From Myxococcales bacterium (GTDB taxonomy: Bacteria > Myxococcota > Myxococcia > Myxococcales > UBA5297): a stretch of DNA of 64,000 nucleotides. Below are positions 20,542-64,000 of the stretch, piece by piece. The stretch spans positions 226,486 through 290,485 of the forward strand of contig JAVBMV010000007.1 in the NCBI GenBank assembly GCA_031552145.1. The letters are read 5' to 3'. Numbering within the stretch: position 1 is the first letter of the stretch; each line of letters starts with the position of its first letter. Made by a program: the position numbers and the translations under genes. The notes beneath the pieces are model-generated. The model searched no databases, was not told the DNA's origin, and saw nothing but the letters and a program-made list of their open reading frames with translations.

Positions 20542-20801
20542 CGCTTCTCCTTGCGAGAGAACACATTTGCCCACCGTGTCGCACACTTGTGGCTATCACA
20601 GGCGCAGGAAGGAGAGAAGCGTGGGGGAACGGTGCCGAGAAGAGATGCCAAATCATTGCCCGCGGCGGCGCCAAGCTCCAATTCGCGGATTGAGCGTTGA
20701 GGCGGAAGCCATATTCCAATGACGATTGCCCTGTCTGCGAAAATCCCCTAACATCCCTCGTTTCACATGCTGTGAGGATGCTGGATAGAGCGGGAGTGAA
20801 C

Positions 20802-27748: not shown

Positions 27749-28240
27749 ATGGCCCAAAAGATCTCGCCCCTGCTTCCCCCAACCGCGGAGCTGTTGCGAC
27801 AGCTCGGCGCACGGCTCAGGCTCGCCCGGCTGCGGCGCGGATTGACGGCGCGCCAAGTCGCGGAGAGAGCCGGCATGGCCCCGATGACCCTTCGCGGAGT
27901 AGAGAGGGGCGCGGCGGGAGCGACGATTGGCGCCTATGTAGCCGTCCTGCAGGTGCTCGGGCTCGAGAGCGCGCTGGCCCTGCTCGCCAAGAGCGACGAA
28001 GTGGGGCGCGAGCTGCAGGACGCCCAACTTCCGAGCAGGCCACGGCCCAGACGCGTCGCAGGCGGAGGGCGCGCCTCGAGTGCGAAGAAACATGAAGCGC
28101 CTCATGATGCTCCTTCGAAGGCGCAGAGTAAGGCTCCGAGCTGGGCCGCCGCCGCCGGCTTTGTCACCTCCGAGGAGCTGGCACGCGCGCGCTCCGCACC
28201 GCACCCCAGCACCCACACCGACGAAGACGAGCAGGAGTGA
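27749..28240 (+). CDS. hipB: XRE-family HTH protein, HipB-type antitoxin
   Basis: HTH LRLARLRRGLTARQVAERAGMAPMTLRGVERG. The stop overlaps the hipA start (GTGA, 28237-28240). Long, low-complexity C-terminal tail. Confidence 0.8.
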   Translation: MAQKISPLLPPTAELLRQLGARLRLARLRRGLTARQVAERAGMAPMTLRGVERGAAGATIGAYVAVLQVLGLESALALLAKSDEVGRELQDAQLPSRPRPRRVAGGGRASSAKKHEAPHDAPSKAQSKAPSWAAAAGFVTSEELARARSAPHPSTHTDEDEQE

Positions 28241-43306: not shown

Positions 43307-43956
43307 TGGAGCTCCCCGCGCTCTCGATAGAGCCCCATCCGCTGCTTCACCTGCGCGCCCTGGTGGCCGAGCTGCCCGAGGGGGCCATGGCTGCCCCCAC
43401 TCCGGAGGCCATCGCGCGGCTGCTCGCCTTGGCGCCGGCGCCGGGGCTGACACCGCTCGCGCCGCCCGACGACGCGGTGCGCTCCGAGATCCGGGGGCTC
43501 CTGCGCCACGGCGGCTTCAAGCCGACCGGACGTTCGAAGCCCTGCCCCGAATATCTGCTGCGCGAGGTGGGAGAGGGGCCCATTCGCTCCATCAACCCCG
43601 CCGTCGATCTGGGCAACGTGGTGGCGCTCCACTCTGGCCTCCCGGTCTGCATCTTCGATCTGGACCGGCTCGCTCCGCCGTTGCGCGTAGCGATTGCCGG
43701 GGAGGGGGAGGGCTATCCCTTCAACGCCTCGGGGCAGGTGATCGACCTGGCCGGCCTGCTCTGCCTCTATGACGGCGAGGGGCCCTGCGGCAACGCCGTG
43801 AAGGACGCCCAGCGGACCAAGACCGATGTTTCGACCCGCCGGCTCCTCTGCCTCCTCTGGGGCTGCGTCTCCCAGAGGGCGCGGACCGACGCCGCCGCCC
43901 AGTGGGCGCTAGAGTTGCTGCGCTCGTTAGAAGGTGAGAGCGCCTTTCTCGCATAG
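43306..43956 (+). CDS. Stand-alone B3/B4 (PheT-like tRNA-binding) domain protein
   Basis: ATG 43306 overlaps the glnS stop (TGATG). [21 protein letters not shown]...[26 protein letters not shown]...[12 protein letters not shown] resembles the PheRS-beta B3/B4 fold family. The track start at 43072 lies inside glnS. Confidence 0.7.
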
Positions 43957-49981: not shown

Positions 49982-50012
49982 TCGCTGCATCCAGCAGAGC
50001 AAGGAACGCAGC

Positions 50013-50891
50013 ATGAGTCAGCAGAGGCCGCATCGTTTCATTACAAACGATGCGGCCTTTTGCGATCTATTGGGGCTGCTCGCGAAGGAGCGCGCCTTCG
50101 CGCTCGACACCGAGGCGAACAGCTTCTTCGTCTATTACGAGCGCGTCTGCCTGGTGCAGCTCTCCACGCGGGCGGAGGACTTCATCGTCGACCCCTTCGC
50201 CGTCGACCTGAAGCCCCTCGGGCCGCTCCTGGCTGACCCCGCCATCGAGAAGGTGCTCCACGCCGCGGACTATGATCTGCGCTGCCTGGACCGCGACTAT
50301 GGCTTCCGGGTGGCCAATCTCTTCGACACCATGCTCGCCGCGCGCCTCGCGGGGGCCAAGGAGTTGGGGCTCGCGGCGCTGGTGAAGGCGCGCTTCGGGG
50401 CCACCCTGTCGAAGAAGTATCAGCGCAGCGACTGGGGGCAGCGGCCGCTCACGGAGGAGCAGCTCGCTTACGCGACGCTCGACACCCAATACCTGCTCGC
50501 GCTGCGCGACCAGCTCGGCGCCGAGCTCGCCGCCGCCGGGAAGATGGATGAGGCCGGGCGCCAGTTCGAGCGGCAGTGCGCCTGTCGCTATCGGAAGAAG
50601 CCGTTCGATGTGAACGGCTTTCGGCGCCTGCAGGGCTTCAGGCAGCTCTCGCCCCAAGGGCGCGAAGTGGCCAAGGCGCTCTATCTGCTGCGCGAGGAGA
50701 AGGCGCGCGAATATGACCGACCTCCCTTCAAGATCTATGGCGACACCGTGATCGTCGAGTTGGCCCAGCGGATGCCCGCGAGCCTCGCCGAAGTGGAGAA
50801 GGTTCCGGGACTGGGGAAGTCTACGCTCGGGCGGATGGGGGAGGCGATAGTGGTGGCTTGCGCTGGCGGAGCGGGGCAGGCGGGGCAATAA
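50013..50891 (+). CDS. rnd: Ribonuclease D-like 3'-5' exonuclease with HRDC domain
   Basis: DEDDy motifs FALDTEAN, LHAADYDL and YATLDTQYL. C-terminal HRDC-like segment. Confidence 0.8.
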   Translation: MSQQRPHRFITNDAAFCDLLGLLAKERAFALDTEANSFFVYYERVCLVQLSTRAEDFIVDPFAVDLKPLGPLLADPAIEKVLHAADYDLRCLDRDYGFRVANLFDTMLAARLAGAKELGLAALVKARFGATLSKKYQRSDWGQRPLTEEQLAYATLDTQYLLALRDQLGAELAAAGKMDEAGRQFERQCACRYRKKPFDVNGFRRLQGFRQLSPQGREVAKALYLLREEKAREYDRPPFKIYGDTVIVELAQRMPASLAEVEKVPGLGKSTLGRMGEAIVVACAGGAGQAGQ

Positions 50892-50919
50892 AAAACGCCC
50901 GCCGATTGCTCGGCGGGCG
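50887..50919 (-). terminator. Rho-independent terminator of the minus-strand Cys-repeat/RCC1 gene
   Basis: 9-bp stem CGCCCGCCG (50896-50904) / CGGCGGGCG (50911-50919), loop ATTGCT. On the minus strand it is followed by TTTTTTATT (plus-strand A-run 50887-50895). It overlaps the rnd stop codon. Confidence 0.7.
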
Positions 50920-50945
50920 CTCTGCGGAGCTTCTTTATTCCGTGA

Positions 50946-53900
50946 CTATGGCACGGCTATTGGCGTCGGGTTTGCTATCTTGAATCCGCGCACGTCTGAA
51001 GCCGTATTGGAGTTGTTTATTCCCAGGATGCCGTAGTTGTTCTGCCCCCAGCAATAGACTGAGCCATCCGATTTTAGGGCGCAGGTTGAGCGCAGAGAGG
51101 CTACCACCTCCACGACGCCACTGGCGAGATCGGGCAGGGCAATCGCTGCCGCCGATGAAGTTCCAGTGGTCGTGCCAAGTTGGTAATAGGAGTTGCTGCC
51201 CCAACAATGGACGGCACCCGCCACGACGGCGCAGCTGTGGGACTCGGAGGTGGCTAGGCTGCTGATAGTGCCCGTCACCACGTTTATTTGCGCGCCAGCT
51301 TCCGCGGTTCCCCCATTGCCGTTCTGTCCATAAAAGTTGTAGCCGGTGCAGAAGATTGCTCCGTCAGAGGCCCTGGCTGCGCAAGTCCTGGCATAGGAGG
51401 AGTCGCCGATGAAGATCTTCGAGTACGGGACGTTGGGTAGATCGATAGGTGCCGGGGTCTTATTCTTTTCCCAACAGTGGACGCCGCCCGCTGCTGGCGC
51501 GACACACAGATGCATGCGGCCGCCAGCGATGGCCGTTACGCCCGTATCGTAGCCGACAAGATCGATGGGGGTGCTCGTGCTCGTGCAGGGGAGGCCCTCC
51601 TCGGGCTCCGCATTTCCCCCGGTCCAAGCGCAGTATCCCCAACACTTCACGCCTCCGGTATTAGTTAACGCACAAGTGACGTCGTTGCCGACAGCTACAT
51701 CCGTCGCCGTCCAAGAGGTCTGCCCCACGATATCGGTGGGGGCGCCCTGGTCTGACGGGTTGGGAACTGCAAGTCCATCGCCGAGTGCACCGTTCGCGGC
51801 TTTGCCCCAGCACTTAACGATGCCGGTTGTGGTCACCAGACAGCCGTGGGTATTGGTGGACGGGGCAATCTTGGCGATTTGATAGCCAGTGTTTTGGACA
51901 GCGACTGGATAGTACTTGTTGGTGGTGCCGCCGTCGCCTAATTGTTTGCCGGTTCCGATACCCCAACAGTATGCCGTCCCAGAGTCTTTAAGCACGGCGC
52001 AAATGTTGTAGTACCCGCTGCTGTAGATGTGCGCGATCTGCTCGCACTTGCCGCTGGCCCCTGGGCCCTTGAGGAAGCCCGGCAGACATGTGCAAGCGCC
52101 GCTAAGGCACTGGGACGTTGTCGCTCCCAGAGTCGCCGCGCAGTCGATGGCGGGCGATCCGCAAACATTGAGCGTGTCGAGCACGCAGGTGTTGCCTTCC
52201 TTGTGGTGGGTCGAGAGGCAGGTGGCCACTTCGCAGGTTCCTCCCGCGAGGCAGTTGGCCGTGGCGACGCCCTCGGCCGCGGTGCAGTCAGTCCCGCCCG
52301 CGCCGCAATACGTCCCGTCGTCCGCCATGCAGAGGTTGTTACCAAAGATGGTCACTATGTGGAAATCGGGCTTGCAAGTAAGTGCCTTACACTGCCCGCC
52401 TGCGGCGCACTCCAAGGAGGCTGCGTTGGGGAACTGGTCGACGCAGTTGACATTCTCCACCCCGCAGTGCTCGGCGTCGTCGGGAAGGCAGGTGAAGGTA
52501 GCGCCGACGTAATAGTAGTCGTCGTCGCAGGTGAGCGGCTTGCACGTGCCGCCAGCGAGACAGTCGGCGGTGGCGACACCGGCGGCGGTGGTGCAGTCAA
52601 TCTGGGCGGGGCCGCAGTGCTCGCTATCATCCGCGGCACAGCCGTTGCCGCTGATGTGGAAGTCGAGGTTGCAGGTGAGCGCCTTGCAGATGCCCGCGTC
52701 GCAGTCGACGGTGGCGGCGTTGGTGAGGGCAGTGCAGTCGGCCTCGGCCTCGCCGCAGGCGGTGTTGGTGTCCGGCGCGCAGCCGAGGTTCTTGAGGTGG
52801 TAGTCCGCGTCGCAGCCGGTCGCCTCGCAGTTTTCGTTGTTGCAGATGGCGGTGGCGACGCCGATGATCTCGGTGCAGTTGACCTGGCTGGGCCCACAAT
52901 GCTGGGCGTCGTTGGCGATGCAGGTATTGCCGTCGATGTGGAAACCGGGGTCGCAGGTGAGCGCCTTGCATCGCCCGCCCGCGAGGCACTGGGCCGTCAC
53001 GACGCCTTCGAGCGCGGTGCAGTCGATCTGGCTTCCGCCACAATGCTGAGCGTCGTCGGCGGCGCAGTCGGCCCCGGCGATGTGGAAGTCGACAAGGCAG
53101 CTCAGCGCCTTGCAGAGGCCGAGGTCGCACCGGGCGCTCTCGACGCCAGCGGCGGTCATGCAGTTGGCCTCGCCGGTGCCACAGAGCGTGGGGCTATCCT
53201 GGATGCAGGCGTCGCTCTTGAAGTGATAGCCCGGGTCGCAGGTGAGCGCCTTGCAGGTTCCACCTGTGACGCAGGAGGCGGTGGCGACACCGGCAATCGC
53301 CTCGCAGTTGGTTTCGCTGGTGCCGCAGGCCGAGGGGGAATCCGGGATACAGGCGTTGTTCTTCAGGTGATAGTTGGCCTTGCAGGTATCGACCTTGCAA
53401 AGTGCGTTGACGCAGCTGGTCGAGGCCGCGTTGGGATTGGCGGTCTCGCAGTTGAGTTCGGTCGCGCCGCAGGCGGTGGCGCTATCGGGCAGGCAGGCGA
53501 AGTTCTTCAGGTGGAAGTTGGCCTTGCAGGAGGTGGCCTGGCAGTTGCCGAAGGTGCAGACGGTAGCGGCGGCCCCCGCGGCCGTCGTGCAGTTGGTTTC
53601 GCTGACGCCGCAGAGGGTGGCGCTGTCGGCCACACAGGTGTTGTCCTTCAGGTGGAAATTAGCCTTGCAGGCCGTGACCCGGCAGGCGCCCGCGTCGCAG
53701 ATGGTCGCGGCGGCGTTGGGGTTGGTGGCGCCACAGTTGGTCTCGCTGACACCGCAGACGGTGGTGGAGTCGGGGATGCAGGCGTTGCCGCGAAGGTGGT
53801 AGCCGGAATTGCACGTGTCGACCTTGCAGAGGCCGCTGACGCAGGAGGTGGTGGCCGCGTAGGGGATGGCGGCGCAGTTCACCTCGGCGGCACCGCATGC

Positions 53901-55100
53901 AGTGTTGCTGTCGACCACGCAGCTATTTCCGTTTTTAGGATGGCGATTGGCGGCGCAGGTATCCACCTTGCAGAGGCCGCCGACGCAGCTCGTCGCCGTG
54001 GCGCCCGTAATCCCGGTGCAGTCGGCCTCGGCCTCGCCGCAGAGCACGTTGCTGTCGGCGATGCAGAGACCGCCTTTGAGGTGATAGTTCGCGGCGCAAG
54101 CGTCGATCTTACAGGCGCCGCTGATACAGGAGGTGGCCGCGGCGTGGGGCAGAACCTCACAGCTGACCGGCGGGATGCCGCAGGCGGAGGCGCTGTCGGC
54201 CACACAGGTGTTCTGCGCGACATGAAAGTTGGGCCTGCAGTTCTCTACCTTGCACGCGCCCGCCACACAGGAGGTGGCGGTGGTATTGGCGATGAGAGTG
54301 CAGTTCTCCACCATGGCGCCGCAAGCGGTGACGCTATCCGCGGCGCAGGCGTTGTTCTTCAAGTGGTAGTTGGCGTCGCAGCGCTCGATGCGGCAGAGAC
54401 CCTCTTCGCAGGTGACATCATCGACGCCGTCGAGCGCGGTGCAGTCGACGCCGGAAGGGCCGCACCCTTCGGCGCTGTCGGGAAGGCACTCGCTGCCTTC
54501 GAGGTGGTGAGCCGACTCGCACAAGGCGATCTTGCAGGCGCCGCTCTCGCAGGTAGCGCTGGCGACGCCGGGCAGGTCCGTGCAGTCGACCGCGCCCGCG
54601 CCACAAGCCCTCTCCGTATCGGGTTCGCAGACCGCGCCCTCGACGTGGTAGTTGGCCTTGCATGTGTCGGCCATGCAGGCTCCTTGAACACAGGAGGCAG
54701 TGGCGATCCCGACGCCTCTCTTGCAGTTGGTGCAGCGGTCGCCGCAGCAGGAGGCGGTGTCGTTTGCCACGCAGGCCTCGCCCTCTGCGTGGAAGCCGCT
54801 CTTGCACTCATGAGTACAGGCGCCGCCGAGACAGAGAGCATCGGCGTTGGCTGGAGGCGTGCACTTGGCGCAGTCGTTGCCGCAGCAAGAGACGTCGCCG
54901 TTGGGCACACAGAGGTTTCCTTGGCGATGGAAACCCGGGTCGCAGGTAAAGCCACAGATGCCGTCCTCGCAGAGCACGGCGCCATGTTCAGGCGCGGTAC
55001 ATCGAGCGCAGGGGTCGTCGTTGACACTGGTCTCCTCTCCGCAGCCGGTCAGAGAGAAGAGTCCAAGAAGGGGAAGCAGTGCAGCCAGGGTGTTGCGCAT
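50946..55100 (-). CDS. Lipoprotein: ~21 tandem six-Cys (~45-aa) repeats fused to a C-terminal 7-bladed RCC1-like beta-propeller (1384 aa)
   Basis: GGAGG RBS before ATG 55100. Lipoprotein signal MRNTLAALLPLLGLFSLTGCGEE. Repeat unit: CG....(D/N)C(T)...G(V)A(T)A(S)C..G.CK...C.(A)N(Y/F)H(L)....C..D. RCC1 blades include HSCAVVAGAVHCWGSNSYYQLG and STCALKSDGSVYCWGQNNYGILG. The track start at 55295 adds 65 non-signal residues. Confidence 0.9.
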   Translation of the reverse strand: MRNTLAALLPLLGLFSLTGCGEETSVNDDPCARCTAPEHGAVLCEDGICGFTCDPGFHRQGNLCVPNGDVSCCGNDCAKCTPPANADALCLGGACTHECKSGFHAEGEACVANDTASCCGDRCTNCKRGVGIATASCVQGACMADTCKANYHVEGAVCEPDTERACGAGAVDCTDLPGVASATCESGACKIALCESAHHLEGSECLPDSAEGCGPSGVDCTALDGVDDVTCEEGLCRIERCDANYHLKNNACAADSVTACGAMVENCTLIANTTATSCVAGACKVENCRPNFHVAQNTCVADSASACGIPPVSCEVLPHAAATSCISGACKIDACAANYHLKGGLCIADSNVLCGEAEADCTGITGATATSCVGGLCKVDTCAANRHPKNGNSCVVDSNTACGAAEVNCAAIPYAATTSCVSGLCKVDTCNSGYHLRGNACIPDSTTVCGVSETNCGATNPNAAATICDAGACRVTACKANFHLKDNTCVADSATLCGVSETNCTTAAGAAATVCTFGNCQATSCKANFHLKNFACLPDSATACGATELNCETANPNAASTSCVNALCKVDTCKANYHLKNNACIPDSPSACGTSETNCEAIAGVATASCVTGGTCKALTCDPGYHFKSDACIQDSPTLCGTGEANCMTAAGVESARCDLGLCKALSCLVDFHIAGADCAADDAQHCGGSQIDCTALEGVVTAQCLAGGRCKALTCDPGFHIDGNTCIANDAQHCGPSQVNCTEIIGVATAICNNENCEATGCDADYHLKNLGCAPDTNTACGEAEADCTALTNAATVDCDAGICKALTCNLDFHISGNGCAADDSEHCGPAQIDCTTAAGVATADCLAGGTCKPLTCDDDYYYVGATFTCLPDDAEHCGVENVNCVDQFPNAASLECAAGGQCKALTCKPDFHIVTIFGNNLCMADDGTYCGAGGTDCTAAEGVATANCLAGGTCEVATCLSTHHKEGNTCVLDTLNVCGSPAIDCAATLGATTSQCLSGACTCLPGFLKGPGASGKCEQIAHIYSSGYYNICAVLKDSGTAYCWGIGTGKQLGDGGTTNKYYPVAVQNTGYQIAKIAPSTNTHGCLVTTTGIVKCWGKAANGALGDGLAVPNPSDQGAPTDIVGQTSWTATDVAVGNDVTCALTNTGGVKCWGYCAWTGGNAEPEEGLPCTSTSTPIDLVGYDTGVTAIAGGRMHLCVAPAAGGVHCWEKNKTPAPIDLPNVPYSKIFIGDSSYARTCAARASDGAIFCTGYNFYGQNGNGGTAEAGAQINVVTGTISSLATSESHSCAVVAGAVHCWGSNSYYQLGTTTGTSSAAAIALPDLASGVVEVVASLRSTCALKSDGSVYCWGQNNYGILGINNSNTASDVRGFKIANPTPIAVP

Positions 55101-55275
55101 TGTCGCCTCCGAAACGTGTGCAGCCGATGAAGTCGCCGGTACGCCGACGATGATGTAACCGCGGAAGTAGAGCACAAGCGGAGGGTCGATGTGAAGAGAT
55201 GTAGGAGAGGGAGGCCACCGCCTCCGGGCGCATAGATGTAGGGCTGGCGGGAAGATGAGCGCGGAGACAGGAGGC

Positions 55276-55950
55276 TCAGAAAAAGACCAGCCCAAGGGCG
55301 GCGTTGGGGAAGAGCCCTCCCTCCAGATCGATACGACGACCGTCTTCGCGCCAATGCCTAATGGAGTAACCCAGGTATATCTCCGGAAAGAGAGCGAAGC
55401 TCCGAGAGAGGTATATCAGGTAGCCCACCGACGCGCCGACGACCAGAAAACTCACGTCTGGTACGCGCTCGAAAATACCCAGATAGCCATCCAAGTGCTC
55501 ATAGCGAAGGCTGGGGCCGAAGACGAGTTGGTCGCGCTCCCAAAGGTCGATCCCAATAAGCATGGGCAACGCCACCATCCAGGACTCCATCGCGTTGCTG
55601 CGCAACTGCGGGTTGAGCGCGACGCCGACACGAAGCGCGTCCTCGTCATCGGGCAAGCGCAGGGCCACCTTTATATCGACGCCGACATCATCGAGGCTAA
55701 AACGTACCGCGCCGTCGACCCTGGAAGAAATACCAAACCGCGCGGCCATCTCCAGGTTGGGCAGTAGCGCGACATCAGTTCTGCCGTCGTCGATCGCGGG
55801 GCTTGGAGCGGCAGAGAGCGCCGGAGCAATTGTCGCTTGCCACACCCCTTTCTCGATAGGGCGCGCCGTGGTCAAGGTAGAGTGGGAGAGGCAAGCGCTC
55901 GCGGAGAGTGTCCAGAGTGCTATGGGGAGCAGCAACGGTCTGCCAACCAT
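55276..55950 (-). CDS. Small outer-membrane beta-barrel-like lipoprotein (hypothetical)
   Basis: GGAGGG RBS. N-terminus MVGRPLLLPIALWTLSASAC. Alternating-hydrophobic strands. C-terminal ...NAALGLVFF (aromatic terminus typical of OMPs). Confidence 0.6.
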   Translation of the reverse strand: MVGRPLLLPIALWTLSASACLSHSTLTTARPIEKGVWQATIAPALSAAPSPAIDDGRTDVALLPNLEMAARFGISSRVDGAVRFSLDDVGVDIKVALRLPDDEDALRVGVALNPQLRSNAMESWMVALPMLIGIDLWERDQLVFGPSLRYEHLDGYLGIFERVPDVSFLVVGASVGYLIYLSRSFALFPEIYLGYSIRHWREDGRRIDLEGGLFPNAALGLVFF

Positions 55951-55964
55951 TTATTCCCTCCGAG

Positions 55965-56672
55965 CTAGAAGCTGAGCGCTGTATATGCGGCCGACAACGA
56001 GAGACCAAGCGTGAAGGGAAGATCCGCGGACTCTGTAGCGGAGATGGAGTTCTCATGGACCCTGTCATAAAACCTACCGACGCGCCAGATATATAAAAAC
56101 ATTGCGTGTGCCGACGCCCCGATAGACCAGTTTTGCGACAATGCCCAGTCCTTTCCAAAACCCACCTTGGCGCCGACGCCTCCCTCACTCCAATGGCCAA
56201 TTTCTCTGACTGTGTAGGTCCCTGCATAGTTGTCGGTTTTGTTTTGCCAGTTGGCGACAAGAAGAGCGAGGTCAATGTGGTAGCCGTCGGAAAAGTGCAG
56301 CCCGATGAAAGGCCCGGCGCCATAGGTGGCGGTCCACGCGTTCCGGGAGCCTTCCTCGGGGGGAAGATCATCGAAAGAGAAGCGCCCGAAGGCATATGCG
56401 CCAAGTGTGAGTCGTTCCGAAAGCTTGATTCCGACGGCGAGGTTGGAATGTATTGGCAGCCCCGCTTCGAGCTCGTGCCCTGGATATCGTTCGGGGTCCA
56501 GATGGTAGCCCTGAGACCAGAGGCCCAGCCCCACCTCGCCACGCAGAACTAAGCTGCAGCAGCGGGGCGGGGGTTGGTGGAGTTCTCGGTAGTCTGAGTC
56601 GGGCGATTGCCCTAGGGCAACGCCATTCCAAAACAGAAAGAACGATGTAAGCAGAGTAGCCGCGTAGCGCAT
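55965..56672 (-). CDS. Small outer-membrane beta-barrel-like protein (hypothetical)
   Basis: Signal peptide MRYAATLLTSFFLFWNGVALGQ. Strand-like alternation, Gly/aromatic girdle residues. C-terminal ...SAAYTALSF. Confidence 0.6.
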   Translation of the reverse strand: MRYAATLLTSFFLFWNGVALGQSPDSDYRELHQPPPRCCSLVLRGEVGLGLWSQGYHLDPERYPGHELEAGLPIHSNLAVGIKLSERLTLGAYAFGRFSFDDLPPEEGSRNAWTATYGAGPFIGLHFSDGYHIDLALLVANWQNKTDNYAGTYTVREIGHWSEGGVGAKVGFGKDWALSQNWSIGASAHAMFLYIWRVGRFYDRVHENSISATESADLPFTLGLSLSAAYTALSF

Positions 56673-56681
56673 GGCCGCACC

Positions 56682-56957
56682 TTATGGGCAATTGGAAAGC
56701 CCGGGTGGTGGCATGGCCTGGCCGTAGCTGTTTCCGCCCCAGCATTTGACCATGTGATAGGTGTCAATCGCACACGAGTGGCTTTGTCCCGCGCCGATGC
56801 GCATTGTATCGGATGTGCCATAGTCCTGTTGGATGCCTTTGTGCACAACCTTTTCTGTTGTGAGCCTTTGGCATCCTGCAGTGAGGAGGAATGTACCCAC
56901 CCAGGCCGCGATGATACTGGCCGCTGCCCAACTGCCCCGTCGACGAGGTGAGTCCAT
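56682..56957 (-). CDS. Mini-lipoprotein carrying a single RCC1-like blade (91 aa)
   Basis: AAGGAG lies 6 nt before ATG 56957. Lipobox FLLTAGC. The mature part contains GAGQSHSCAIDTYHMVKCWGGNSYGQ. 9 nt separate it from the next gene. It could also be a remnant fragment. Confidence 0.5.
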   Translation of the reverse strand: MDSPRRRGSWAAASIIAAWVGTFLLTAGCQRLTTEKVVHKGIQQDYGTSDTMRIGAGQSHSCAIDTYHMVKCWGGNSYGQAMPPPGLSNCP

Positions 56958-57030
56958 AACGACTCCTTGCTGGCAAGGAGCGCGGGCCATGTAGCCACGC
57001 GCTCGGGTGGTACATCGCTCTACAGAGCAC

Positions 57031-57060
57031 CAAATATCCAAAAGCATGGGCGCTTGTCAA
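57031..57060 (-). promoter_or_regulatory. Putative sigma70-like promoter for the mini-lipoprotein/barrel/RCC1 gene cluster
   Basis: On the minus strand: TTGACA (57060-57055), 18-nt spacer, TATTTG (57036-57031). It lies just downstream of the terminator of the preceding gene. Confidence 0.35.
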
Positions 57061-57123
57061 GCTGTCGACGGTCCGGCAGGCGAGGCTGCCGTCGGCAGAG
57101 GGCGCCATGGATGGGCTAAAGAC

Positions 57124-57155
57124 AAAAAAGTGCCCCGGGGATAACTCCGGGGCAC
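57124..57155 (-). terminator. Rho-independent terminator of the 57188-59659 gene
   Basis: 9-bp stem GTGCCCCGG (57130-57138) / CCGGGGCAC (57147-57155), 8-nt loop. On the minus strand it is followed by TTTTTT (plus-strand A-run 57124-57129). Confidence 0.75.
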
Positions 57156-57187
57156 GTATCGATCGGTTCAACCGGTTTCGTGCTTGA

Positions 57188-59659
57188 TCACGGAGTGGTT
57201 GGTGGCGCGTCGATCAGCGGGGTCGGCGTTTCGACAATCTTTGCCGTGGTATCGGTGCCGTTTGCATCGCCCGCTCCATTGAGGCATCCGAGCACGCCGA
57301 AGGCGTTTCGGCCCCAGCAATAGGCGGCTCCTTCGGCGGTGAGCACGCAGCTTCCGTTGTAGGCTGTGACTGTCGCTGCGACGCCAGCCTCGAACCCAAT
57401 GACGTCTAGCGGCGTCGTGGAGTTGGCGGTGCCATTACCCAGTTGTCGATTCGTGTTAGTGCCCCAACACTTAGCTCCGCCGTTGACTACGGCGCAGGAG
57501 TGCGAAAAGGCGATGGACATGGAGCTGATTGGGGCTGGATCGAAGACGGTGACCAATTTGGCGGTGTTGGGGTGGCTCGTCTCCGTGCCATTGCCGTTTT
57601 GGCCCGTAGTGTTGAACCCCCAGCAATAAATGGAATTGTCGCTCGCCATGGTTGCACAGGCGCGGGTCTGCCCGCTCCCCCCTGCGGACCCAGCGACAAG
57701 CTTCGAGATGGCGGCCGTTTTGTCGGGAGCGCTCTCGGGCAGCTGAATGATGGGTATAAGTGTTCCCACATTGTAGCAGATGACCCCGTCGTCTCCGACG
57801 CCGATACAGAAAACACGTCGGCTGACCGCCAGCTTGGAAACCCCGCTAGAATAGTCAAAGCCGCCAATAGCGGATTTGAAGTCGACCGGTGCGTGCACGT
57901 CGTCGTCGAAGCCGTAAAGGAAGAGGCTGTCTCCCCAGACCTTGACGCCTCCCGTTGTCGTTAGCGCTACGGTATAGCCCTGTCCGACGCCGACGTATTC
58001 CGCCTTCCAGGTGGCGTCATTCACTTTGACGGGAGTCTTTCTGTCGTCAGTAGTATTGTCGCCCACGCCCCCATATTGATTCTGTCCCCAACAGTAGACG
58101 TCATCATTCGCATCGATCATGCAGCTGTGGTGCCACGTCGAGGGTGCCACCATCTTGACGCCGGCGGTCGCACCCACTACCTGCACGGGTACGGAACTGT
58201 TCGTGGTCGTGTCATTCCCGAGAGCCCCGAATTCGTTGCGTCCCCAGCATTTAAGCGCGCGCGTGGTCTTTAGGATGGCACACATTACGAAATCGCCCGT
58301 GCCGACGAGCTCGGCGATGGCGTCGCAATTGCCATCCGGACCGGTCAGCATTCCAGGCTTGCAGACCGGTGCGCTGCAGAGGCCGCTCTCGCAGGGTGCT
58401 GTCTGGTAGGGAGTCAATCCCACAGTGCAGTCCACCGCGGTGGGGCCGCAGGCCGTGGAGGTGTCGGCCACGCAGTTGGCGCCTACTGGATGGAAGTCGA
58501 GCTCGCACTCGGTCGCCCTGCAGGCGCCATTCTCGCAGATTGCCTCGAAGACATTCGCCGCGGCGTAGCAATCCTCCTGGTGGGCCCCGCAGGAGTCGAC
58601 GGTATCGGGGGCGCAGGCGTTGTTGGCGACGTGGTAATTGGCGATGCACGTATTGATGACGCAGGCGGCGCCCACGCAGCTCGCGGTGGCCACGCCCGCG
58701 CCGCTCGTGCAGTCGAGGGCGGCGGCGCCGCAGGAGGTGGCGCTGTCGGCAACGCAGGTGGCGCCGCTCAGATGGTGGGCGGGCTTGCAGCTCTGTGCCA
58801 CGCAGGCGCCCGCGCTGCAACGCACGGCGCCGACGCCGGGAAGCGCGGTGCAGTCATTGTCGTGCGCGCCGCACGCGAGCTTGCTGTCGAGGACGCAGGC
58901 GTTGCCGTCGAGATGGTAGTTGGCGCCGCAGGTGAGCGCCTTGCAGACGCCCGCTTCGCATGTGGCGCTGGCGACCCCCGTGGTCGCTCCGCAGTCGACG
59001 AGGTTGGCGCCACAGGCGGCGCCGGTGTCGGCCGCGCAGGTGATGCCCTTGAGGTGGAAATCGGCGTCGCAGGTGAGCGCCTTGCAGCGACCCTGCACGC
59101 AGGAGGCCGTGGCCACGCCGTTGGCGGCGGTGCAGTCGGTGGCGGAGAGGCCACAGGCGGTGGCGCTGTCGGCCTCGCAGGCGCCCCCTTTAGGGTGGAA
59201 GTTGTCGAGGCAGGAGAAGGCCTTGCACGCTCCATCGATGCAATCGACGCCGGCTACGCCGGTGCCCTTGGTGCAATCGGTGGCGGCGGCGCCGCAGGCG
59301 GTGCGGCTGTCGAGCGCGCACTCGCCCTGGGCGAGGTGATAGCCCGCGGCGCAGCTCTCGGCCACGCAGCGCCCCTCCGCGCAGGTCGCGGCGCTCACGC
59401 CCTTCTTCGCGGCGCAGTTGCGGCACTCGGCGCCACAACACTCGGCGGTGTTGTTCGCGACGCATTGGTCGCCAGAGCGAATGTATCCTTCGTCACAGGT
59501 GAAGCCGCAGATCTTCTTCTCGCAGAGAACCTTGCCGTGCTCGGGCGCGACACAGCTCTTGCAGGGATCCGCCGAGGTCTCCGTTTCGCCACAGGCCGAA
59601 AGACCGAGCGAGGAGAAGAGCAAGAACGACGATATCAGGGGGGTCGATGTGAGGCGCAT
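57188..59659 (-). CDS. Lipoprotein: ~9 six-Cys repeats fused to a C-terminal RCC1-like propeller (823 aa); paralogue of 50946-55100
   Basis: ATG at 59659 gives the lipoprotein signal MRLTSTPLISSFLLFSSLGLSACGETE. The N-terminus is colinear with the paralogue (DPCKSCVAPEHGKVLCEKKICGFTCDEGY vs DPCARCTAPEHGAVLCEDGICGFTCDPGF). RCC1 blades include HSCAVVNGGAKCWGTNTNRQLG. The track ORF 57188-63358 runs upstream through antisense sequence and is not all coding. Confidence 0.9.
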   Translation of the reverse strand: MRLTSTPLISSFLLFSSLGLSACGETETSADPCKSCVAPEHGKVLCEKKICGFTCDEGYIRSGDQCVANNTAECCGAECRNCAAKKGVSAATCAEGRCVAESCAAGYHLAQGECALDSRTACGAAATDCTKGTGVAGVDCIDGACKAFSCLDNFHPKGGACEADSATACGLSATDCTAANGVATASCVQGRCKALTCDADFHLKGITCAADTGAACGANLVDCGATTGVASATCEAGVCKALTCGANYHLDGNACVLDSKLACGAHDNDCTALPGVGAVRCSAGACVAQSCKPAHHLSGATCVADSATSCGAAALDCTSGAGVATASCVGAACVINTCIANYHVANNACAPDTVDSCGAHQEDCYAAANVFEAICENGACRATECELDFHPVGANCVADTSTACGPTAVDCTVGLTPYQTAPCESGLCSAPVCKPGMLTGPDGNCDAIAELVGTGDFVMCAILKTTRALKCWGRNEFGALGNDTTTNSSVPVQVVGATAGVKMVAPSTWHHSCMIDANDDVYCWGQNQYGGVGDNTTDDRKTPVKVNDATWKAEYVGVGQGYTVALTTTGGVKVWGDSLFLYGFDDDVHAPVDFKSAIGGFDYSSGVSKLAVSRRVFCIGVGDDGVICYNVGTLIPIIQLPESAPDKTAAISKLVAGSAGGSGQTRACATMASDNSIYCWGFNTTGQNGNGTETSHPNTAKLVTVFDPAPISSMSIAFSHSCAVVNGGAKCWGTNTNRQLGNGTANSTTPLDVIGFEAGVAATVTAYNGSCVLTAEGAAYCWGRNAFGVLGCLNGAGDANGTDTTAKIVETPTPLIDAPPTTP

Positions 59660-59851
59660 TGGAGACTCCGAATCACGGGTTGTATCCAGCGTCGGCTCGC
59701 CTTTCTTGGTTTGCCGAACCCTCGAAGCGTAGCCTAGGCAGGGCAGGTGTGGCAACGGAGCACATGTCGATTGCCATATCGCTCTGCTCGTCAGAAAAAG
59801 GCCGAGTCCGCGACATAACAGAGGCGCAGCGCCCATCCCATGGAGGTTCCG

Positions 59852-62800
59852 ATGCGCTCTTTCCCAAAGTTCCTCTCGCTCACCCTGTTGGTGGCATCGC
59901 TCACGGCCTGCGAGAAGGACCAGATCAATCTGACGCCAGACGTGGGGACGGACGCGGACGCGGGCGACGCTTCCCACGACGCCGATGTGGGGCAGTGCCT
60001 TCCCCCGGACGAAATATGCGGCGAGGAGTGCTGCGAGGCGCCCGGGCGCTGTGTGGCGGGCGAGTGCGTGACCTGCGAGCGCCAATGCGAGGGCAAGCGA
60101 TGCGGCCCCGACGGCTGCGGCGGCACCTGCGGTGAATGCGCGGAAGAGGAGCGCTGTGTCGATGGGCTCTGCGAGAAAGATTGCGCGGACCCCGAGACGG
60201 ACGCGGCCTTTTGCATGCGCCTGATGCGCTGCGGCCAGACGACGGCCCAGGATCGGTGTGGCGAAACGCGGACGGTCGATTGCACGGAAATGCTGGGGTG
60301 TACCTCGACGCAGCGATGCGCGGCCGCGGGGGATTGCGTCTGCGCCGACACCCCCGAAGACGGCGACTACTGTCCGCTGGCCAAGTCGAAGCTCCACGTC
60401 GAGTGCGGCGCCGGCGAGGTCGAAGATCAATGTGGGGCGCTGCATACCTTCGATTGTGGCGATCCCTGCATCGGCGCGGCCTATTGCGGGCCGAGCAACG
60501 TCTGCGACTGTCCCGAGGAAACCGAGGCGGAGCTCTGCGCGCGCCACGGCAAAGACTGCGGCAGGCTGCAGGCGCCCGATCTGTGCGGCAGAGTGGTGGT
60601 AATACCCGATTGCGCCGAGGCGCTCGAGCGGGAAGCTTGCGCCTCGCCGAACCATTGCCTCTATAATGTTTGTGTCCCGACGACGGCCCCGCCCGCCAAT
60701 AACGAATGTGCCGAGGCGGAGCCGCTCTGGCTCTATAATGGCAAAGTGGAGTTCGACGCGGACACCAGCAAAGCGACCGACTCGGGCGACGGCAGGTGCA
60801 ATCGCTATTCGGCCTTCGACTTGGTCTACGAACTGCACCTCGATCGGGCCATGGCGCTCACCATCGAGAGCACCCCCACGTCGGCGGTCACACTTCCCAA
60901 CCTCTATGTCCAGAGCAGCTGCGGCAGCGCGCTGCACGAGCTGGGCTGCATCGCCACGGGCGAGCTCTCGACCAGAGCGGTGTTGCAGGTGCCGCGCGCG
61001 GGGCCGGGCAGCGTCTATCTCTGGGTAGATGGCTATGGAATCAAAGGACATGGCGCCGGGCCCCAGCATGTGGAGATCACGGGCCTCCCCGTCGATGCCC
61101 CCACCAACGACACCTGCGCCGAGGTCGAGCGCCACGTCCTGACCCCGGCGCGGAGCGCCCTCTCCCTGAATGGTTCCACCGCGCTGGCGCTCAATGAGCT
61201 GACGCCCTCCTGCGCTCCGGCGCCGTGGGATGGAAAGGAGCTTATCTATGCCATCACGACCCCGACCGACGGTCCCCGTACCTTTAGCGCCAAGCTCACC
61301 CCGGCGCCCAACTCCTTCTATTGGCCGACGCTCTCCATCCGGCGGGGCTGTGAGGACACAGAGGAGGAGCTCCTCTGCCATGTGAGCGCCGACTCCGGGC
61401 TCATGGAGGCGCTGCTGCCCGAAGTCGAGCCGGGGAGCACGCTCTTTTTGGTCGTCGACAGCCACGGCGATCTCACCGGAGATTTCGTGCTGGAGGTGAG
61501 CTCCGGGCCGCGGGGTGCGCCGCCGCTCAACGCCACCTGCGCTTCGCTCGAGGCCAACGCGGCGCAGTTTGTGCCCGTACAGGATCCCGCCGCGCCGCAG
61601 CGTTACTCCTTCATGGGCCATGGAACGGTGAAGGATGCCGCCGACAGCGCCAAGGGGAGCTGCATGGGGGCGACGGGCGGCCGCGACGTTCGTTACCCCA
61701 TCCACATTGGCGCGCAATCCTCCGTCCAGGTGATGGTGGCGCGCGCCTCCTACAGCCTGGGCTATTTGCCGGCGATCTATCTGAGGTCTCAGTGCGAGGG
61801 CGAGGCGGAGGTCGCGGGCAGCTGCGCCGTGGCGACCGAGGCAAACCCGACGGCCACCTTCTTCACCTCGTCGCTCGCCCCGGGCGATTATTACTTGGTG
61901 GTCGATTCCGCCACGGCGGGCGAGGGCGATTTTACGGTCGACCTCTACATCTGGTCGCCGCCCATCGCCAACTCGGCCTGTAACGCCGCGCCCGAATATG
62001 TCCTGACCACCGGCGTCGAGACGCGGATCGTGGGCAATACGCGCGGTGGCGCCAACACTACCGCGAGCAGCTGCAAGCGAGACGCGAGCGCTCGGGAGTT
62101 GGTCTACAAGGTTCAGATGCCCCCCGAGGGCCACTACGACCTGCTCCTGAGCTATCCACGCGTGCGCGGCGCCACCAATCGCCCCTTCATCTCGATCAGG
62201 AGGGATTGTGCCTCCACCGCGGCGGGCAGCGAGATCTATTGCCAGGGACAAGAGACCCTTATCGACGCCGACCATATCGGGTCGGTCGGCACGCTGAAGG
62301 GGGGCGCCACCTACTCCTTCTGGCTGGAGGAGCCGGCGGGAACCGTCAATGGTCTCTTCGAGCTGGAGCTGGTGGCGCTGCGCGCCGGTATTCCGACCCA
62401 TGCGGTCTGTGAGACGGCCGATCCCGTGACGCCCGATCTCGACGCCGGCGGCAGGGTTACGCTCTCGGGCAAGCTGCGGGACACCGCCGACGATTATGTC
62501 GCCAGCTGCGCCGCCTCCTACGGCGCCGACCTGGTCTATCGATTCGACCCGGGCGCGGAGGTGGTCAACTACCGCTTCTCGCTGACGGCGAAGGGGTCGG
62601 ATGACCGCCTCGCCATTTATATCCGCGACACCTGCGCCGAGGGCGCGGCCGACGTGCTCTGCCATGGGCAAGTCACGAGCGCTCTCACGAAGGTCTTCGA
62701 ATACCGAGGGGTGGATAGGCCCTTCTATCTCTTCATCGACACCGTGGAGCCCGCCAACGCCAGCCCCAAGATGGTTGGCGATTTCACGCTCGAGGTGTGG

Positions 62801-64000
62801 GCCAGGCGCAAGGGCGAGCCGCCGCAGAATGATCTGTGCGGCGGGGCGCGCGAGCTCGTGCCCGACGCCGCGACCGGCAAGGTGAGCGTGCGCGACTTCA
62901 CCACCTCGGATGCGAATGGAGATTATATGGGCAGCTGTACGCCGAAGACCGAGGGAGAGAATGCGCCCGACATGGTCTACAAGGTGCACGTGACGAGCCC
63001 GAGCAAGCTCTCGGCCATCCTCGCTACGTCGCGTCTCTTCCCCGACTTCCGCCCCTCCGTCTATATCCGCCGTGAGAATTGCATGGACGAGACGGGCGCG
63101 TCGGAGGTGGCCTGCGCCAACGCGGGCAGCAGCGACGACGTGACCTATGGCATCGCGACGGCCGCGGCGACGGTGAGCCCTGGCTGGTATTATATCTTTG
63201 TGGATGGGGTCGACAGCGCCTCGCACGGCGATGCTTCGCTGGAGGTGCTGGTGAGACCCGTCGCGCCGCTCTCTGACTCCTGCGCGGGCGCGGAGATGGT
63301 CGAGCTGATGGTGCCCGGCAGCGAGCGCATCGAGGGCGACACCTCCGCCGCCACTCACTCGACGCGCTCGGCCTCGCTCTCCTATGGCAACGGCCCCGAC
63401 GTCGTCTACGAGCTGCGCCTGAACGCGGCCGCCCGGCTCGACGCCACGCTCGCCTTCGTGCCCGCCTATGGCATTCCGGTGCTCTACCTGCGCGACGACT
63501 GCACCGGCGCCACGGCGGACGATGAGCTAGGCGCGGTGCGCGGCGCCGACGGCAGCGCCATTTCGCTGAGCCGAACGCTCCCCGCCGGTACCTACTGGAT
63601 CTGGATCGACTCGCACTTGCCGCTCTCTGGCCCCTTCTCGCTGCTGCTCGAGACGACGGCGCTTCCCTCCGCCCCCGCCCATTCGCTCTGCGCCACGCCC
63701 GAGCCGCTGGCCCTGGTGCAGGAGCGGCTCTCCTTCCGCACCTCGACCGTCGCCGGGTCCGACAACGCTTACGGCACGTGCGGCGGCGCCGGAGGCATCG
63801 AGCGCTATTACCTCTTTACGCCGCCGGTGCAGGCGCGGGGCGCCCTGCGGGTGCAGGTGCGGCGCGAGGCGGGGCCCGCCAACTATTCGCCCGTGGTCTA
63901 TCTGAGGAAGGTCTCGTGCGGCGCGGCCATGCCCGAAGAGGAGCTGGCCTGCGCCACTGCCTCGGGCGGGGTGGCGGAGTTCTCCGTGGAGGCGCCCTAC
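59852..64000 (+). CDS. Giant lipoprotein, 3'-truncated by the window edge: ~278-aa Cys-rich head plus 7 complete and 1 partial four-Cys PPC-like modules (not in the supplied ORF track)
   Basis: By my manual translation, frame 2 is open from ATG 59852 to base 64000 (1383 codons, no stop). GGAGG lies 6 nt upstream. Lipoprotein signal MRSFPKFLSLTLLVASLTACEK. The head contains CGPDGCGGTCGEC and 3 x (F/L)CxRxGxxCG...DC units, homologous to the head of 12472-20541. Module examples: FDLVYELHL...PNLYVQSSC...ELGC...GPGSVYLWVDG and GPDVVYELRL...PVLYLRDDC...AGTYWIWIDS. Confidence 0.9.
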   Translation, partial: MRSFPKFLSLTLLVASLTACEKDQINLTPDVGTDADAGDASHDADVGQCLPPDEICGEECCEAPGRCVAGECVTCERQCEGKRCGPDGCGGTCGECAEEERCVDGLCEKDCADPETDAAFCMRLMRCGQTTAQDRCGETRTVDCTEMLGCTSTQRCAAAGDCVCADTPEDGDYCPLAKSKLHVECGAGEVEDQCGALHTFDCGDPCIGAAYCGPSNVCDCPEETEAELCARHGKDCGRLQAPDLCGRVVVIPDCAEALEREACASPNHCLYNVCVPTTAPPANNECAEAEPLWLYNGKVEFDADTSKATDSGDGRCNRYSAFDLVYELHLDRAMALTIESTPTSAVTLPNLYVQSSCGSALHELGCIATGELSTRAVLQVPRAGPGSVYLWVDGYGIKGHGAGPQHVEITGLPVDAPTNDTCAEVERHVLTPARSALSLNGSTALALNELTPSCAPAPWDGKELIYAITTPTDGPRTFSAKLTPAPNSFYWPTLSIRRGCEDTEEELLCHVSADSGLMEALLPEVEPGSTLFLVVDSHGDLTGDFVLEVSSGPRGAPPLNATCASLEANAAQFVPVQDPAAPQRYSFMGHGTVKDAADSAKGSCMGATGGRDVRYPIHIGAQSSVQVMVARASYSLGYLPAIYLRSQCEGEAEVAGSCAVATEANPTATFFTSSLAPGDYYLVVDSATAGEGDFTVDLYIWSPPIANSACNAAPEYVLTTGVETRIVGNTRGGANTTASSCKRDASARELVYKVQMPPEGHYDLLLSYPRVRGATNRPFISIRRDCASTAAGSEIYCQGQETLIDADHIGSVGTLKGGATYSFWLEEPAGTVNGLFELELVALRAGIPTHAVCETADPVTPDLDAGGRVTLSGKLRDTADDYVASCAASYGADLVYRFDPGAEVVNYRFSLTAKGSDDRLAIYIRDTCAEGAADVLCHGQVTSALTKVFEYRGVDRPFYLFIDTVEPANASPKMVGDFTLEVWARRKGEPPQNDLCGGARELVPDAATGKVSVRDFTTSDANGDYMGSCTPKTEGENAPDMVYKVHVTSPSKLSAILATSRLFPDFRPSVYIRRENCMDETGASEVACANAGSSDDVTYGIATAAATVSPGWYYIFVDGVDSASHGDASLEVLVRPVAPLSDSCAGAEMVELMVPGSERIEGDTSAATHSTRSASLSYGNGPDVVYELRLNAAARLDATLAFVPAYGIPVLYLRDDCTGATADDELGAVRGADGSAISLSRTLPAGTYWIWIDSHLPLSGPFSLLLETTALPSAPAHSLCATPEPLALVQERLSFRTSTVAGSDNAYGTCGGAGGIERYYLFTPPVQARGALRVQVRREAGPANYSPVVYLRKVSCGAAMPEEELACATASGGVAEFSVEAPY

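Follow-up and report, generated by a model that had tools for sequence, protein, structure and literature searches.

Giant bacterial adhesins such as SiiE, LapA, and the Marinomonas ice-binding adhesin are tandem arrays of β-sandwich domains, Ig-like repeats of the bacterial immunoglobulin-like (BIg) or cadherin type that are often near-identical to one another, and they carry type-1 secretion signals. β-Sandwich domains of a different kind, the collagen-binding domains of ColG and ColH, occur in one to three copies attached to a peptidase and include the tandem pair s3a-s3b. Among myxobacteria, the Cys-rich surface receptor TraA reportedly combines a PA14 domain with Cys-rich repeats and a MYXO-CTERM. 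At the level of annotation, AntiFam is said to have been built to flag the spurious long antisense open reading frames (ORFs), or shadow ORFs, of GC-rich genomes. Here we describe a locus with points of resemblance to each of these. It lies at the end of a 64,000-nucleotide (nt) stretch of DNA from a Myxococcales bacterium (contig JAVBMV010000007.1, positions 226,486 to 290,485; referred to below as the window), and it very probably consists of two real, divergently transcribed lipoprotein genes, which we call A (plus strand) and D (minus strand), together with one artefactual long ORF; the product of gene A is probably a lipid-anchored, binding-type rod.

Gene A begins at ATG 59852 and occupies the plus strand to the end of the window (59852 to 64000). 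The original prediction, made from the sequence alone, held that this frame is open to the last base, and translation yields 1383 codons without a single stop; by our estimate, the chance of such a run in random sequence of 65% GC, with about 2.5% stops per codon, is approximately 4e-16. The GC contents of the first, second, and third codon positions (GC1, GC2, and GC3) are 0.642, 0.534, and 0.847, a pattern that matches that of the window's housekeeping genes, and the product, which starts with MRSFPKFLSLTLLVASLTAC, is protein-like throughout. An in-frame TAA at 59816 bounds any upstream extension. A Shine-Dalgarno-like GGAGG is present before the ATG as had been stated (59842 to 59846, plus strand), with a spacer of 5 nt rather than 6 nt, and the sole other candidate start, ATG 59840, overlaps it. 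Where the prediction erred was in the size of the gene, given as 4.1 kb: the window holds only the first 4,149 nt of a gene of 8,007 nt (8.0 kb) that encodes 2,668 amino acids (aa).

The full length of gene A comes from public assemblies, where its 3′ end, sought beyond the window, was found. A protein record of 2,668 aa (P0011) is identical over residues 1 to 1383 to the product encoded in the window, and looking it up led to two Logan contigs, from runs SRR23967709 and SRR23967707. Contig L004 matches window positions 49852 to 64000 with 0 mismatches in 14,149 bases and places the complete gene at window-equivalent 59852 to 67858, the stop codon ending at 67858. Gene calls on L004 comprise an 823-aa product on the minus strand and the 2,668-aa product on the plus strand, and include no 2056-aa product. 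Gene A and the two other giant genes of the window, B and C, are recorded in an NCBI contig as well. No terminator was found in a search 3′ of the end of gene A, and scans of genome and metagenome contigs with its C-terminal 700 aa gave no match. Two of the look-ups gave false negatives: a word-index homologue search returned six real relatives, all at 30% identity or less, and missed the identical P0011, which an exhaustive profile search found, while an exact look-up of the 823-aa protein D gave no record though L004 lists the same gene. We found no evidence that contradicts this reading of the gene structure.

Gene A had been reported as missing from the list of ORFs that accompanied the window. 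Any ORF that continues past an end of the source is omitted from this list, as the prediction supposed, and the list contains no plus-strand ORF beyond 61197. Gene A is therefore lost only in that list, because its frame runs off the window; its absence is a property of the list's window-end rule and not of the genome.

What the list does contain, also as described, is a minus-strand ORF of 2056 aa with a GTG start (57188 to 63358), and the claim that this ORF is a chimera holds. It joins, in one frame, the 823 codons of gene D, 64 stop-free intergenic codons, and 1,169 codons that form an antisense shadow of gene A (59852 to 63358, minus strand) and are not a gene. The register relative to gene A is exact [(63358-59852+1) mod 3 = 0], and upstream of ATG 59659 the first codon position of the minus ORF is the third position of gene A. 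GC1, GC2, and GC3 in this upstream part are 0.822, 0.530, and 0.633, so that a comparison by codon position favors the plus strand, and downstream of ATG 59659 they are 0.575, 0.575, and 0.794, which is coding-like. The translation is rich in Ala, Gly, and Arg for its first 1,233 codons (Ala 14.7%, Gly 13.9%, Arg 13.9%; His, which had been listed with them, is outside the eight commonest residues), and it then continues with MRLTSTPLISSFLLFSSLGLSACG, Cys-rich repeats, and RCC1-like sequence. A Pfam search of the antisense product gave no match at E ≤ 0.1.

A stop codon on the minus strand in this register requires a TTA, CTA, or TCA codon on the sense strand, so the shadow stays open where gene A avoids these three codons. 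The 1,383 codons of gene A in the window include no TTA, no TCA, and one CTA (63527 to 63529, plus strand), which, read from the opposite strand, is the TAG that delimits the shadow ORF, the earliest start codon past it being GTG 63358. In the full gene, whose GC3 is 0.85 to 0.87, only 4 of 2,668 codons are of these types (at 63527, 64658, 64874, and 65093), and their share in other window genes is 0.14 to 1.2%. At gene A's own codon usage, a run of 1,225 codons without an antisense stop has a probability of 0.16, and given 4 such stops in 2668 codons, the probability that the largest gap is at least 1225 is 0.43. The 64 intergenic codons are stop-free in the minus frame with a probability of about 0.12, and the chance of being in frame with gene D is 1/3. 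The chimeric ORF needs no more than a modest coincidence added to a generic high-GC effect. The same signature, with GC highest at codon position 1, is carried by 27 of the 58 window ORFs of at least 250 aa. Several of these span an entire real gene, and the 27 include a 709-aa minus-strand ORF (47885 to 50014) over a 704-aa plus-strand gene (47867 to 49981), a minus-strand ORF (41570 to 43453) over the gene for a class I Glu/Gln-type (GlnRS/GluRS-type) tRNA synthetase, and a 1062-aa plus-strand ORF (51942 to 55130) over gene E, a paralogue of gene D.

Two other readings of the minus strand have to be weighed against this one. The frame opposite gene A (59852 to 63358), in whole or in part, might be a genuine, translated antisense gene overlapping gene A. 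It is open for 1,233 codons upstream of ATG 59659, and at the window-average frequency of TTA, CTA, and TCA (about 0.55%) so long a run would have a probability of about 0.001; moreover, long translated antisense ORFs are claimed for Pseudomonas aeruginosa in a published report (PMC8850804). At the codon usage of gene A itself, however, the run is expected (the probabilities of 0.16 and 0.43 given above), the composition mirrors that of the sense gene (GC1 0.82) with an Ala/Gly/Arg-rich product, and this product has no Pfam match and is uncalled in the public annotation of identical DNA. The corresponding frame is broken by 16 TTA, CTA, or TCA codons in paralogue B and by 10 in paralogue C, and 26 further window ORFs bear the same signature. 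We regard the chance that an antisense gene exists here as negligible. Scarcely more credible is the proposal that gene D starts upstream of ATG 59659 and takes in part of the 2056-aa ORF. Its frame is continuous upstream of 59659 and offers further potential start codons, but the signal peptide and lipobox lie right at ATG 59659, with GGAG 6 nt before it, and GC3 falls upstream of it. In addition, the public call is 823 aa, residue 1 of a gene D homologue in contig L003 aligns to window 59638, and any extension would overlap the leader and the start of gene A.

The reading that we prefer, an antisense shadow fused in frame to a real gene, is of a familiar kind. Like other shadow ORFs, the minus ORF is codon-aligned antisense to a real gene that avoids the three stop-complement codons, its GC content peaks at codon position 1, and its product is Ala/Gly/Arg-rich, with no match in Pfam at E ≤ 0.1. 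It differs from typical shadow ORFs in being unusually long and in continuing in frame, via a stop-free intergenic region, into the real gene D. The warning that the locus would be misannotated is justified only for naive longest-ORF calling; the public gene calls already give 823 aa (minus) and 2668 aa (plus).

Gene D (57188 to 59659, minus strand) is what remains of the minus ORF once the shadow and the intergenic codons are removed. As had been proposed, the real part is the last 823 codons, from ATG 59659, which encode a lipoprotein that combines six-Cys repeats of the CPL1-like kind with a β-propeller of the RCC1 type (Pfam E values of 2e-26 for RCC1, 9e-23 for RCC1_2, and 3.8e-22 for CPL1-like); its signal peptide, ending in a lipobox (…LGLSAC), begins at this ATG. 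The divergent intergenic region between D and A (59660 to 59851) is 192 bp long, and the minus frame that joins the shadow to D runs through it without a stop. The region shows no match to a σ70-type promoter consensus, and an Rfam scan of 59600 to 59960 was likewise negative. One weak terminator-like hairpin lies on the minus strand at 59834 to 59822, within the leader of gene A. That leader has a close counterpart: a patch of 174 nt at the 5′ end of gene A (approximately 59785 to 59958) is 84% identical in DNA sequence to the same part of the gene for the giant protein P0004 (contig L003, approximately 9936 to 10107). The patch spans positions −67 to +107 around the ATG, and so takes in the leader, the signal peptide, and the beginning of the tether described below; beyond it, the two proteins share about 26% identity. 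Among eight giant genes compared, this shared 5′ end is unique to the A/P0004 pair, and it suggests either gene conversion or a common regulatory leader.

The product of gene A is best described from its N terminus, where it has a predicted signal peptide with lipobox, MRSFPKFLSLTLLVASLTA-C (59852 to 59911, plus strand). The lipoprotein signal that had been noted at this ATG is the L-T-A-C of the translation: the sequence MRSFPKFLSLTLLVAS-LTAC, with Cys at residue 20 as the predicted lipidation site, conforms to the signal-peptidase-II pattern of a basic n-region, a hydrophobic h-region, and a lipobox [LVI][ASTVI][GAS]C some 15 to 35 residues from the start, and this N terminus is near-identical in P0004. 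A lipobox lies within the first 50 residues in 101 of the 152 top family representatives. There follows an acidic, low-complexity tether (aa 21 to 48, EKDQINLTPDVGTDADAGDASHDADVGQ; 59912 to 59995) of about 28 residues that is predicted to be disordered; in an AlphaFold2 (AF2) model, the predicted local distance difference test (pLDDT) is below 50 for model residues 14 to 27 and low for the first 40 or so, and a D/G/A/T-rich stretch is common at this position in the family head alignment.

After the tether comes a Cys-rich head. Its first part (aa 49 to 110, including CGPDGCGGTCGEC; 59996 to 60181) was delimited from head alignments of 7 and of 29 proteins, and it is followed by three units of about 50 aa with six Cys each (aa 111 to 162, 167 to 218, and 220 to 274; 60182 to 60673), which an iterated hidden Markov model (HMM) detects with domain E values of 2e-12, 7.9e-10, and 6.5e-14. 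Three copies of the unit are also present in the products of genes B and C, and the unit occurs in 47 of the 152 representatives. The head was originally proposed to be homologous to that of the gene at 12472 to 20541 (gene B), and the two are indeed 34% identical over 212 aa (E 5.6e-22). It contains 39 Cys in total. The AF2 model of the head is locally confident (pLDDT 85.4) and predicts each six-Cys unit as a helix plus two hairpins. The head matched no Pfam or NCBIfam family, and a fold search of the PDB gave no significant match (best E 0.5).

The rest of the protein is a string of modules. The claim of at least seven in the window is borne out, with seven complete modules of about 134 aa and an eighth truncated at base 64000; in the full protein there are 17 (aa 280 to 2663), the last of them a variant tip at aa 2534 to 2663. 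Those in the window, all on the plus strand, are module 1 (aa 280 to 403; 60689 to 61060; module HMM score 90.8 bits), which contains the best stretch for Pfam family PF23759 (aa 282 to 370), module 2 (aa 416 to 547; 61097 to 61492; 89.9 bits), module 3 (aa 557 to 696; 61520 to 61939; 91.8 bits), module 4 (aa 704 to 838; 61961 to 62365; 86.4 bits), module 5 (aa 848 to 980; 62393 to 62791; 66.1 bits), module 6 (aa 990 to 1130; 62819 to 63241; 93.4 bits), module 7 (aa 1138 to 1264; 63263 to 63643; 94.7 bits), and module 8 (aa 1274 to 1402; 63671 to 64000), also found with the module HMM, with nine more following in the full gene.

Module 6 was the one modeled, and each module is predicted to adopt a β-sandwich fold like that of PPC and collagen-binding domains. 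The AF2 model (pLDDT 88.5; predicted TM-score 0.85) has as its best Foldseek matches the collagen-binding domains of ColG and ColH and the PPC domain of a Bacillus anthracis collagenase. Ranks 1 to 5 include 5iku, 1nqj, 3jqw, 1nqd, and 5sv5, at a probability of 1.00, TM-scores of 0.50 to 0.72 (normalized to the single-domain targets), and E values of about 1e-3. The next fold matches are carbohydrate-binding modules (CBMs) of families CBM35 and CBM6 (TM-score about 0.40 to 0.43) and the C-terminal domain of Clostridium perfringens enterotoxin. Pfam points in the same direction, PF23759 scoring 43 bits on the window part and 63.3 bits on the full protein (cutoff, 27) and PF04151 34.1 bits on the full protein (cutoff, 25.9); on the window fragment alone, PF04151 gave no match at E ≤ 0.01. 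NCBIfam searches of the full protein (E ≤ 1), the head, and the tip gave no match. Against PDB sequences, the module profile had marginal matches only, to 2luw (E 0.011), a 101-aa chain named "Metalloprotease", and to collagenases (E 0.25 to 0.7). Head and modules fill the whole length of the protein, which therefore has no catalytic domain.

Four Cys positions recur in the modules. In 96 modules compared, 74 had all four (CCCC), 9 had the pattern C-C-, and 1 had -C-C; module 7, which lacks the second Cys pair, is of the C-C- type. This correlated loss points to Cys1-Cys3 and Cys2-Cys4 disulfides, and so to an oxidizing, extracytoplasmic location; each complete module would then have two disulfides, Cys7-Cys83 and Cys38-Cys94 in the numbering of the model. 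Modules of one protein share 25.6% identity on average, and modules of different proteins 25.1%; these values being alike, recent homogenization of the repeats was rejected, and the modules are ancient, not recently amplified. When A, B, P0014, and P0017 are compared module by module, the best matches run roughly along the diagonal, a sign that certain modules are specific to their position across paralogues. The idea that the C-terminal tip is more conserved was also considered and is unsupported, the tip's mean pairwise identity being 0.325 and that of first and middle modules 0.32.

These features allow gene A to be set beside the systems introduced above. It resembles the ColG and ColH collagen-binding domains, including the tandem s3a-s3b, in that they are the best fold match of its predicted β-sandwich, its modules are in tandem, and PF04151 scores above the gathering threshold. 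It differs from them in having 17 copies rather than one to three, in the lack of an attached peptidase, in an identity of just 13 to 17%, and in the two extra disulfides inferred for each module and the predicted N-terminal lipid anchor. At their N-terminal ends the modules conserve an N-D that is similar to the Ca2+ ligands of ColG, a resemblance that we treat as a lead and not as a test. By sequence, the best curated match is PF23759 (GBD_T9SS_assoc; 63.3 bits versus a cutoff of 27). Gene A departs from the context of that family in that it comes from a Myxococcota bacterium and has a lipobox and no recognizable C-terminal sorting domain; no link to a type IX secretion system (T9SS) was seen, and no more than a few of the 17 modules are picked up by PF23759. 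Like the giant repetitive adhesins, the protein exceeds 2,000 aa and is a long string of small β-sandwich domains with no enzyme domain, and by analogy it is likely to have an extended shape and a binding role. Unlike theirs, its repeats are PPC-like, about 25% mutually identical, and in some cases position-specific, and its predicted anchor is an N-terminal lipid; a Pfam scan of the full protein gave no BIg- or cadherin-like repeats, RTX nonapeptides, or features of type-1 secretion. With TraA it shares a Myxococcota host, a predicted place in the cell envelope, many Cys-rich repeats, and membership of a polymorphic, multicopy family. It differs from TraA in that its Cys-rich part is N-terminal and built from a different unit and in that it has neither PA14 nor MYXO-CTERM: neither was matched in NCBIfam or Pfam at E ≤ 1, and the protein ends in its tip module (…GQFTIHVVDG).

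Gene A belongs to a large and uncharacterized family to which none of the protein collections searched gives a name. A profile built from an alignment of 37 modules from the three window giants, delimited by iterated HMM, was searched exhaustively and matched 18,717 representatives at E ≤ 1e-3, 8,109 at E ≤ 1e-10, and 1,793 at E ≤ 1e-30. Within the window, the paralogues of A are B (E 1.8e-86) and C (E 9e-39). The exact product of gene B (12472 to 20541) is on record as P0012 (2,689 aa), and the product of gene C (39 to 5945) corresponds to residues 668 to 2635 of P0015 (2,635 aa). The frame of gene C (3 to 5945, plus strand) is already open where the window begins, so that this gene too is truncated by an edge, and its listed GTG start at 39 is not real. 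Among the top-scoring giants that were looked up, P0003, P0004, P0014, P0016, P0017, P0019, P0022, and P0024 came from the same two runs as gene A, P0013 being the exception; the two runs that carry this DNA contain at least 11 giant genes, three of them in the 64-kb window, and these may belong to one genome or to several related ones. P0011, P0012, P0014, P0015, P0016, and P0017 are all 2,635 to 2,712 aa long with 16 or 17 modules, though about 25 to 30% identical. Module counts in the 152 top representatives, a list biased towards long proteins, peak at 5 to 8 and 15 to 17.

Several giants stand next to regulatory genes. In 5 of 11 giant-gene contexts, a cassette beside the giant encodes an extracytoplasmic function (ECF) σ factor and a FecR-like anti-σ factor, often together with a protein of 314 to 350 aa that starts with a signal peptide and ends in a barrel-like C terminus. 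The σ and FecR proteins of the cassettes are mutually homologous (blastp E 2.5e-63 to 4.4e-21). In the window, the cassette lies just after gene C (6049 to 9052, plus strand), with the σ/FecR genes at 7158 to 9052 and the σ gene at 7158 to 7646. In L003 it is divergent from the P0004 gene (7080 to 9881), and in L093 it occupies 2 to 967 and 8600 to 9652. In two contexts it appears to be cotranscribed with the giant: in L087 (1532 to 4315) it is on the same strand, 44 nt upstream of the P0017 gene, and in L092 (5297 to 7001) it is on the same strand, immediately upstream of the P0024 gene, with a stop/start overlap. In FecIR-type cell-surface signaling, the genes for an ECF σ and a FecR-domain anti-σ adjoin that of the outer membrane protein that receives the signal; here, no TonB-dependent transducer was seen. 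With several paralogues directly beside ECF σ/FecR-like pairs, the expression or signaling of the family is probably tied to envelope signaling.

Overall, the gene A product is probably a long, envelope-anchored binding rod. It would be exported via its type-II signal peptide and then lipidated, would be anchored in a membrane of the cell envelope, at the surface or in the periplasm, and would extend as a long string of disulfide-stabilized, binding-type β-sandwiches, acting as an adhesin or as a capturer of ligands and not as an enzyme. A binding role, whether adhesin-like or ligand-capturing, follows from the fold family together with the lack of a catalytic domain; a specifically adhesin-like function is put forward tentatively. 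Several points weigh against this picture of a binding rod tied to envelope signaling. The match to collagen-binding domains is remote (13 to 17% identity, Foldseek E about 1e-3, and E 0.25 to 0.7 with PDB sequences), the sugar-binding modules CBM6 and CBM35 are nearly as close in fold, so the ligand could be protein or glycan, and a literature search for PPC-repeat lipoproteins in Myxococcota found no described relative. As to signaling, gene A has no σ/anti-σ neighbor in the DNA seen, 6 of the 11 giant-gene contexts also have no such pair, and Myxococcota are rich in ECF σ genes, so that chance may account for part of the association with giants.

These same observations bear on what else the protein might be. 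Gene A may be real and yet serve mainly as the extracellular sensor or antenna, or as a regulated target, of an ECF σ/FecR-like anti-σ module. The adjacency in 5 of 11 contexts, twice immediately upstream and on the same strand (L087 and L092), the recurrence of the 314- to 350-aa signal-peptide/barrel-like protein in the cassettes, and the 5′ leader that gene A has in common with P0004, whose gene diverges from such a cassette, all speak for this; but gene A itself has no σ/anti-σ neighbor in the DNA seen, plain transcriptional control would account for the adjacency just as well, and we consider this reading unlikely. Somewhat more doubtful is that the modules bind carbohydrate in the manner of CBMs, the protein capturing polysaccharide and not protein ligands. 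The name of the best Pfam family, "galactose-binding domain-like" for PF23759, and the presence of CBM35 and CBM6 among the top fold matches fit such a role, but collagen-binding and PPC structures are closer (TM-score 0.50 to 0.72 versus about 0.40 to 0.43), PF04151 is above threshold, and no glycoside hydrolase or polysaccharide utilization genes adjoin. A bolder idea, which we judge improbable, is that giant PPC-module lipoproteins form an undescribed envelope system of Myxococcota in which the rod is the sensing or ligand-capturing arm of the ECF σ/FecR-like module and replaces a TonB-dependent transducer. It would fit the existence of at least 11 giants, the conserved rod length, the position-specific modules, and the pairing with a small, barrel-like outer membrane protein, and gene A would join the regulon via the 174-nt leader and signal cassette that it has in common with P0004.

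The surroundings of the giants are chromosomal in character. The window contains gyrA and genes for the class I Glu/Gln-type tRNA synthetase, glycogen phosphorylase, phosphofructokinase, and an OmpA-family protein; its GyrA is 79% and 74% identical to those of Myxococcales/Myxococcaceae metagenome-assembled genomes and 61% identical to that of Anaeromyxobacter, which identifies the source as an uncultured member of the Myxococcota. Besides giants C, B, and A, it encodes two CPL1-like/RCC1 lipoproteins, E and D, and in L003 a gene for a 2,017-aa CPL1-like/RCC1 protein follows the P0004 gene. Gene E (50946 to 55295, minus strand), the paralogue of D, encodes eight CPL1-like repeats plus RCC1 repeats, and the TTG at 55295 given as its start in the list (1449 aa) probably lies upstream of the true one, the public call on identical DNA being 1,384 aa from window 55100. 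Between E and D are three small minus-strand genes (55276 to 57047). Two encode probable small outer membrane β-barrels of 224 aa (…GLVFF) and 235 aa (…YTALSF), the latter with a Pfam Autotransporter β-domain match of 29.2 bits, and the third, an ORF of 91 to 121 aa with a single RCC1 repeat, is possibly a gene fragment. Membership of these two barrel-like proteins in the 314- to 350-aa family of the σ/FecR cassettes was considered and rejected (blastp E ≥ 0.03).

On the other side, gene A heads a conserved lpt-rpoN cluster: downstream of it (L005, 8120 to 16949) come, directly, an lptC-like gene, and then lptA, lptB, rpoN, hpf, ptsN, hprK, rapZ, and mannose-type phosphotransferase system genes. 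Divergent from gene B is a gene for a 596-aa protein (20697 to 22487, plus strand) with two Lcl C-terminal domains (PF07603, E 1.7e-55). Between the giants there are also two AAA_14/DUF4143 ATPases, two ATPase_2-type ATPases, one of them with DUF234, and a HipA-like kinase followed immediately by an N6/N4 DNA methyltransferase; the genes of this group lie at 11095 to 12342 (plus), 40105 to 41277 (minus), 32120 to 33583 (plus), 37581 to 39134 (plus), and 28237 to 30350 (plus). Gene types of this sort are often found in mobile or defense islands.

For annotation, the locus is a worked example of two known traps, the loss of a gene at a window edge and a shadow ORF fused in frame to a real gene. 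The minus ORF is an ordinary high-GC artefact that calls for no new biology and with which standard gene callers cope. The biological value, a modest one, lies in gene A and in the family that it represents, giant Cys-rich lipoproteins of Myxococcota with PPC/collagen-binding-like modules. In this organism or community the family has grown to many paralogues, often encoded beside ECF σ/anti-σ pairs. Features that may reward closer study are the conserved length of 16 to 17 modules, the many paralogues, the σ/FecR neighborhoods, and the common leader. If these proteins are surface rods for contact with prey, kin, or substrate, they would bear on the question of how myxobacteria perceive and hold things outside the cell.

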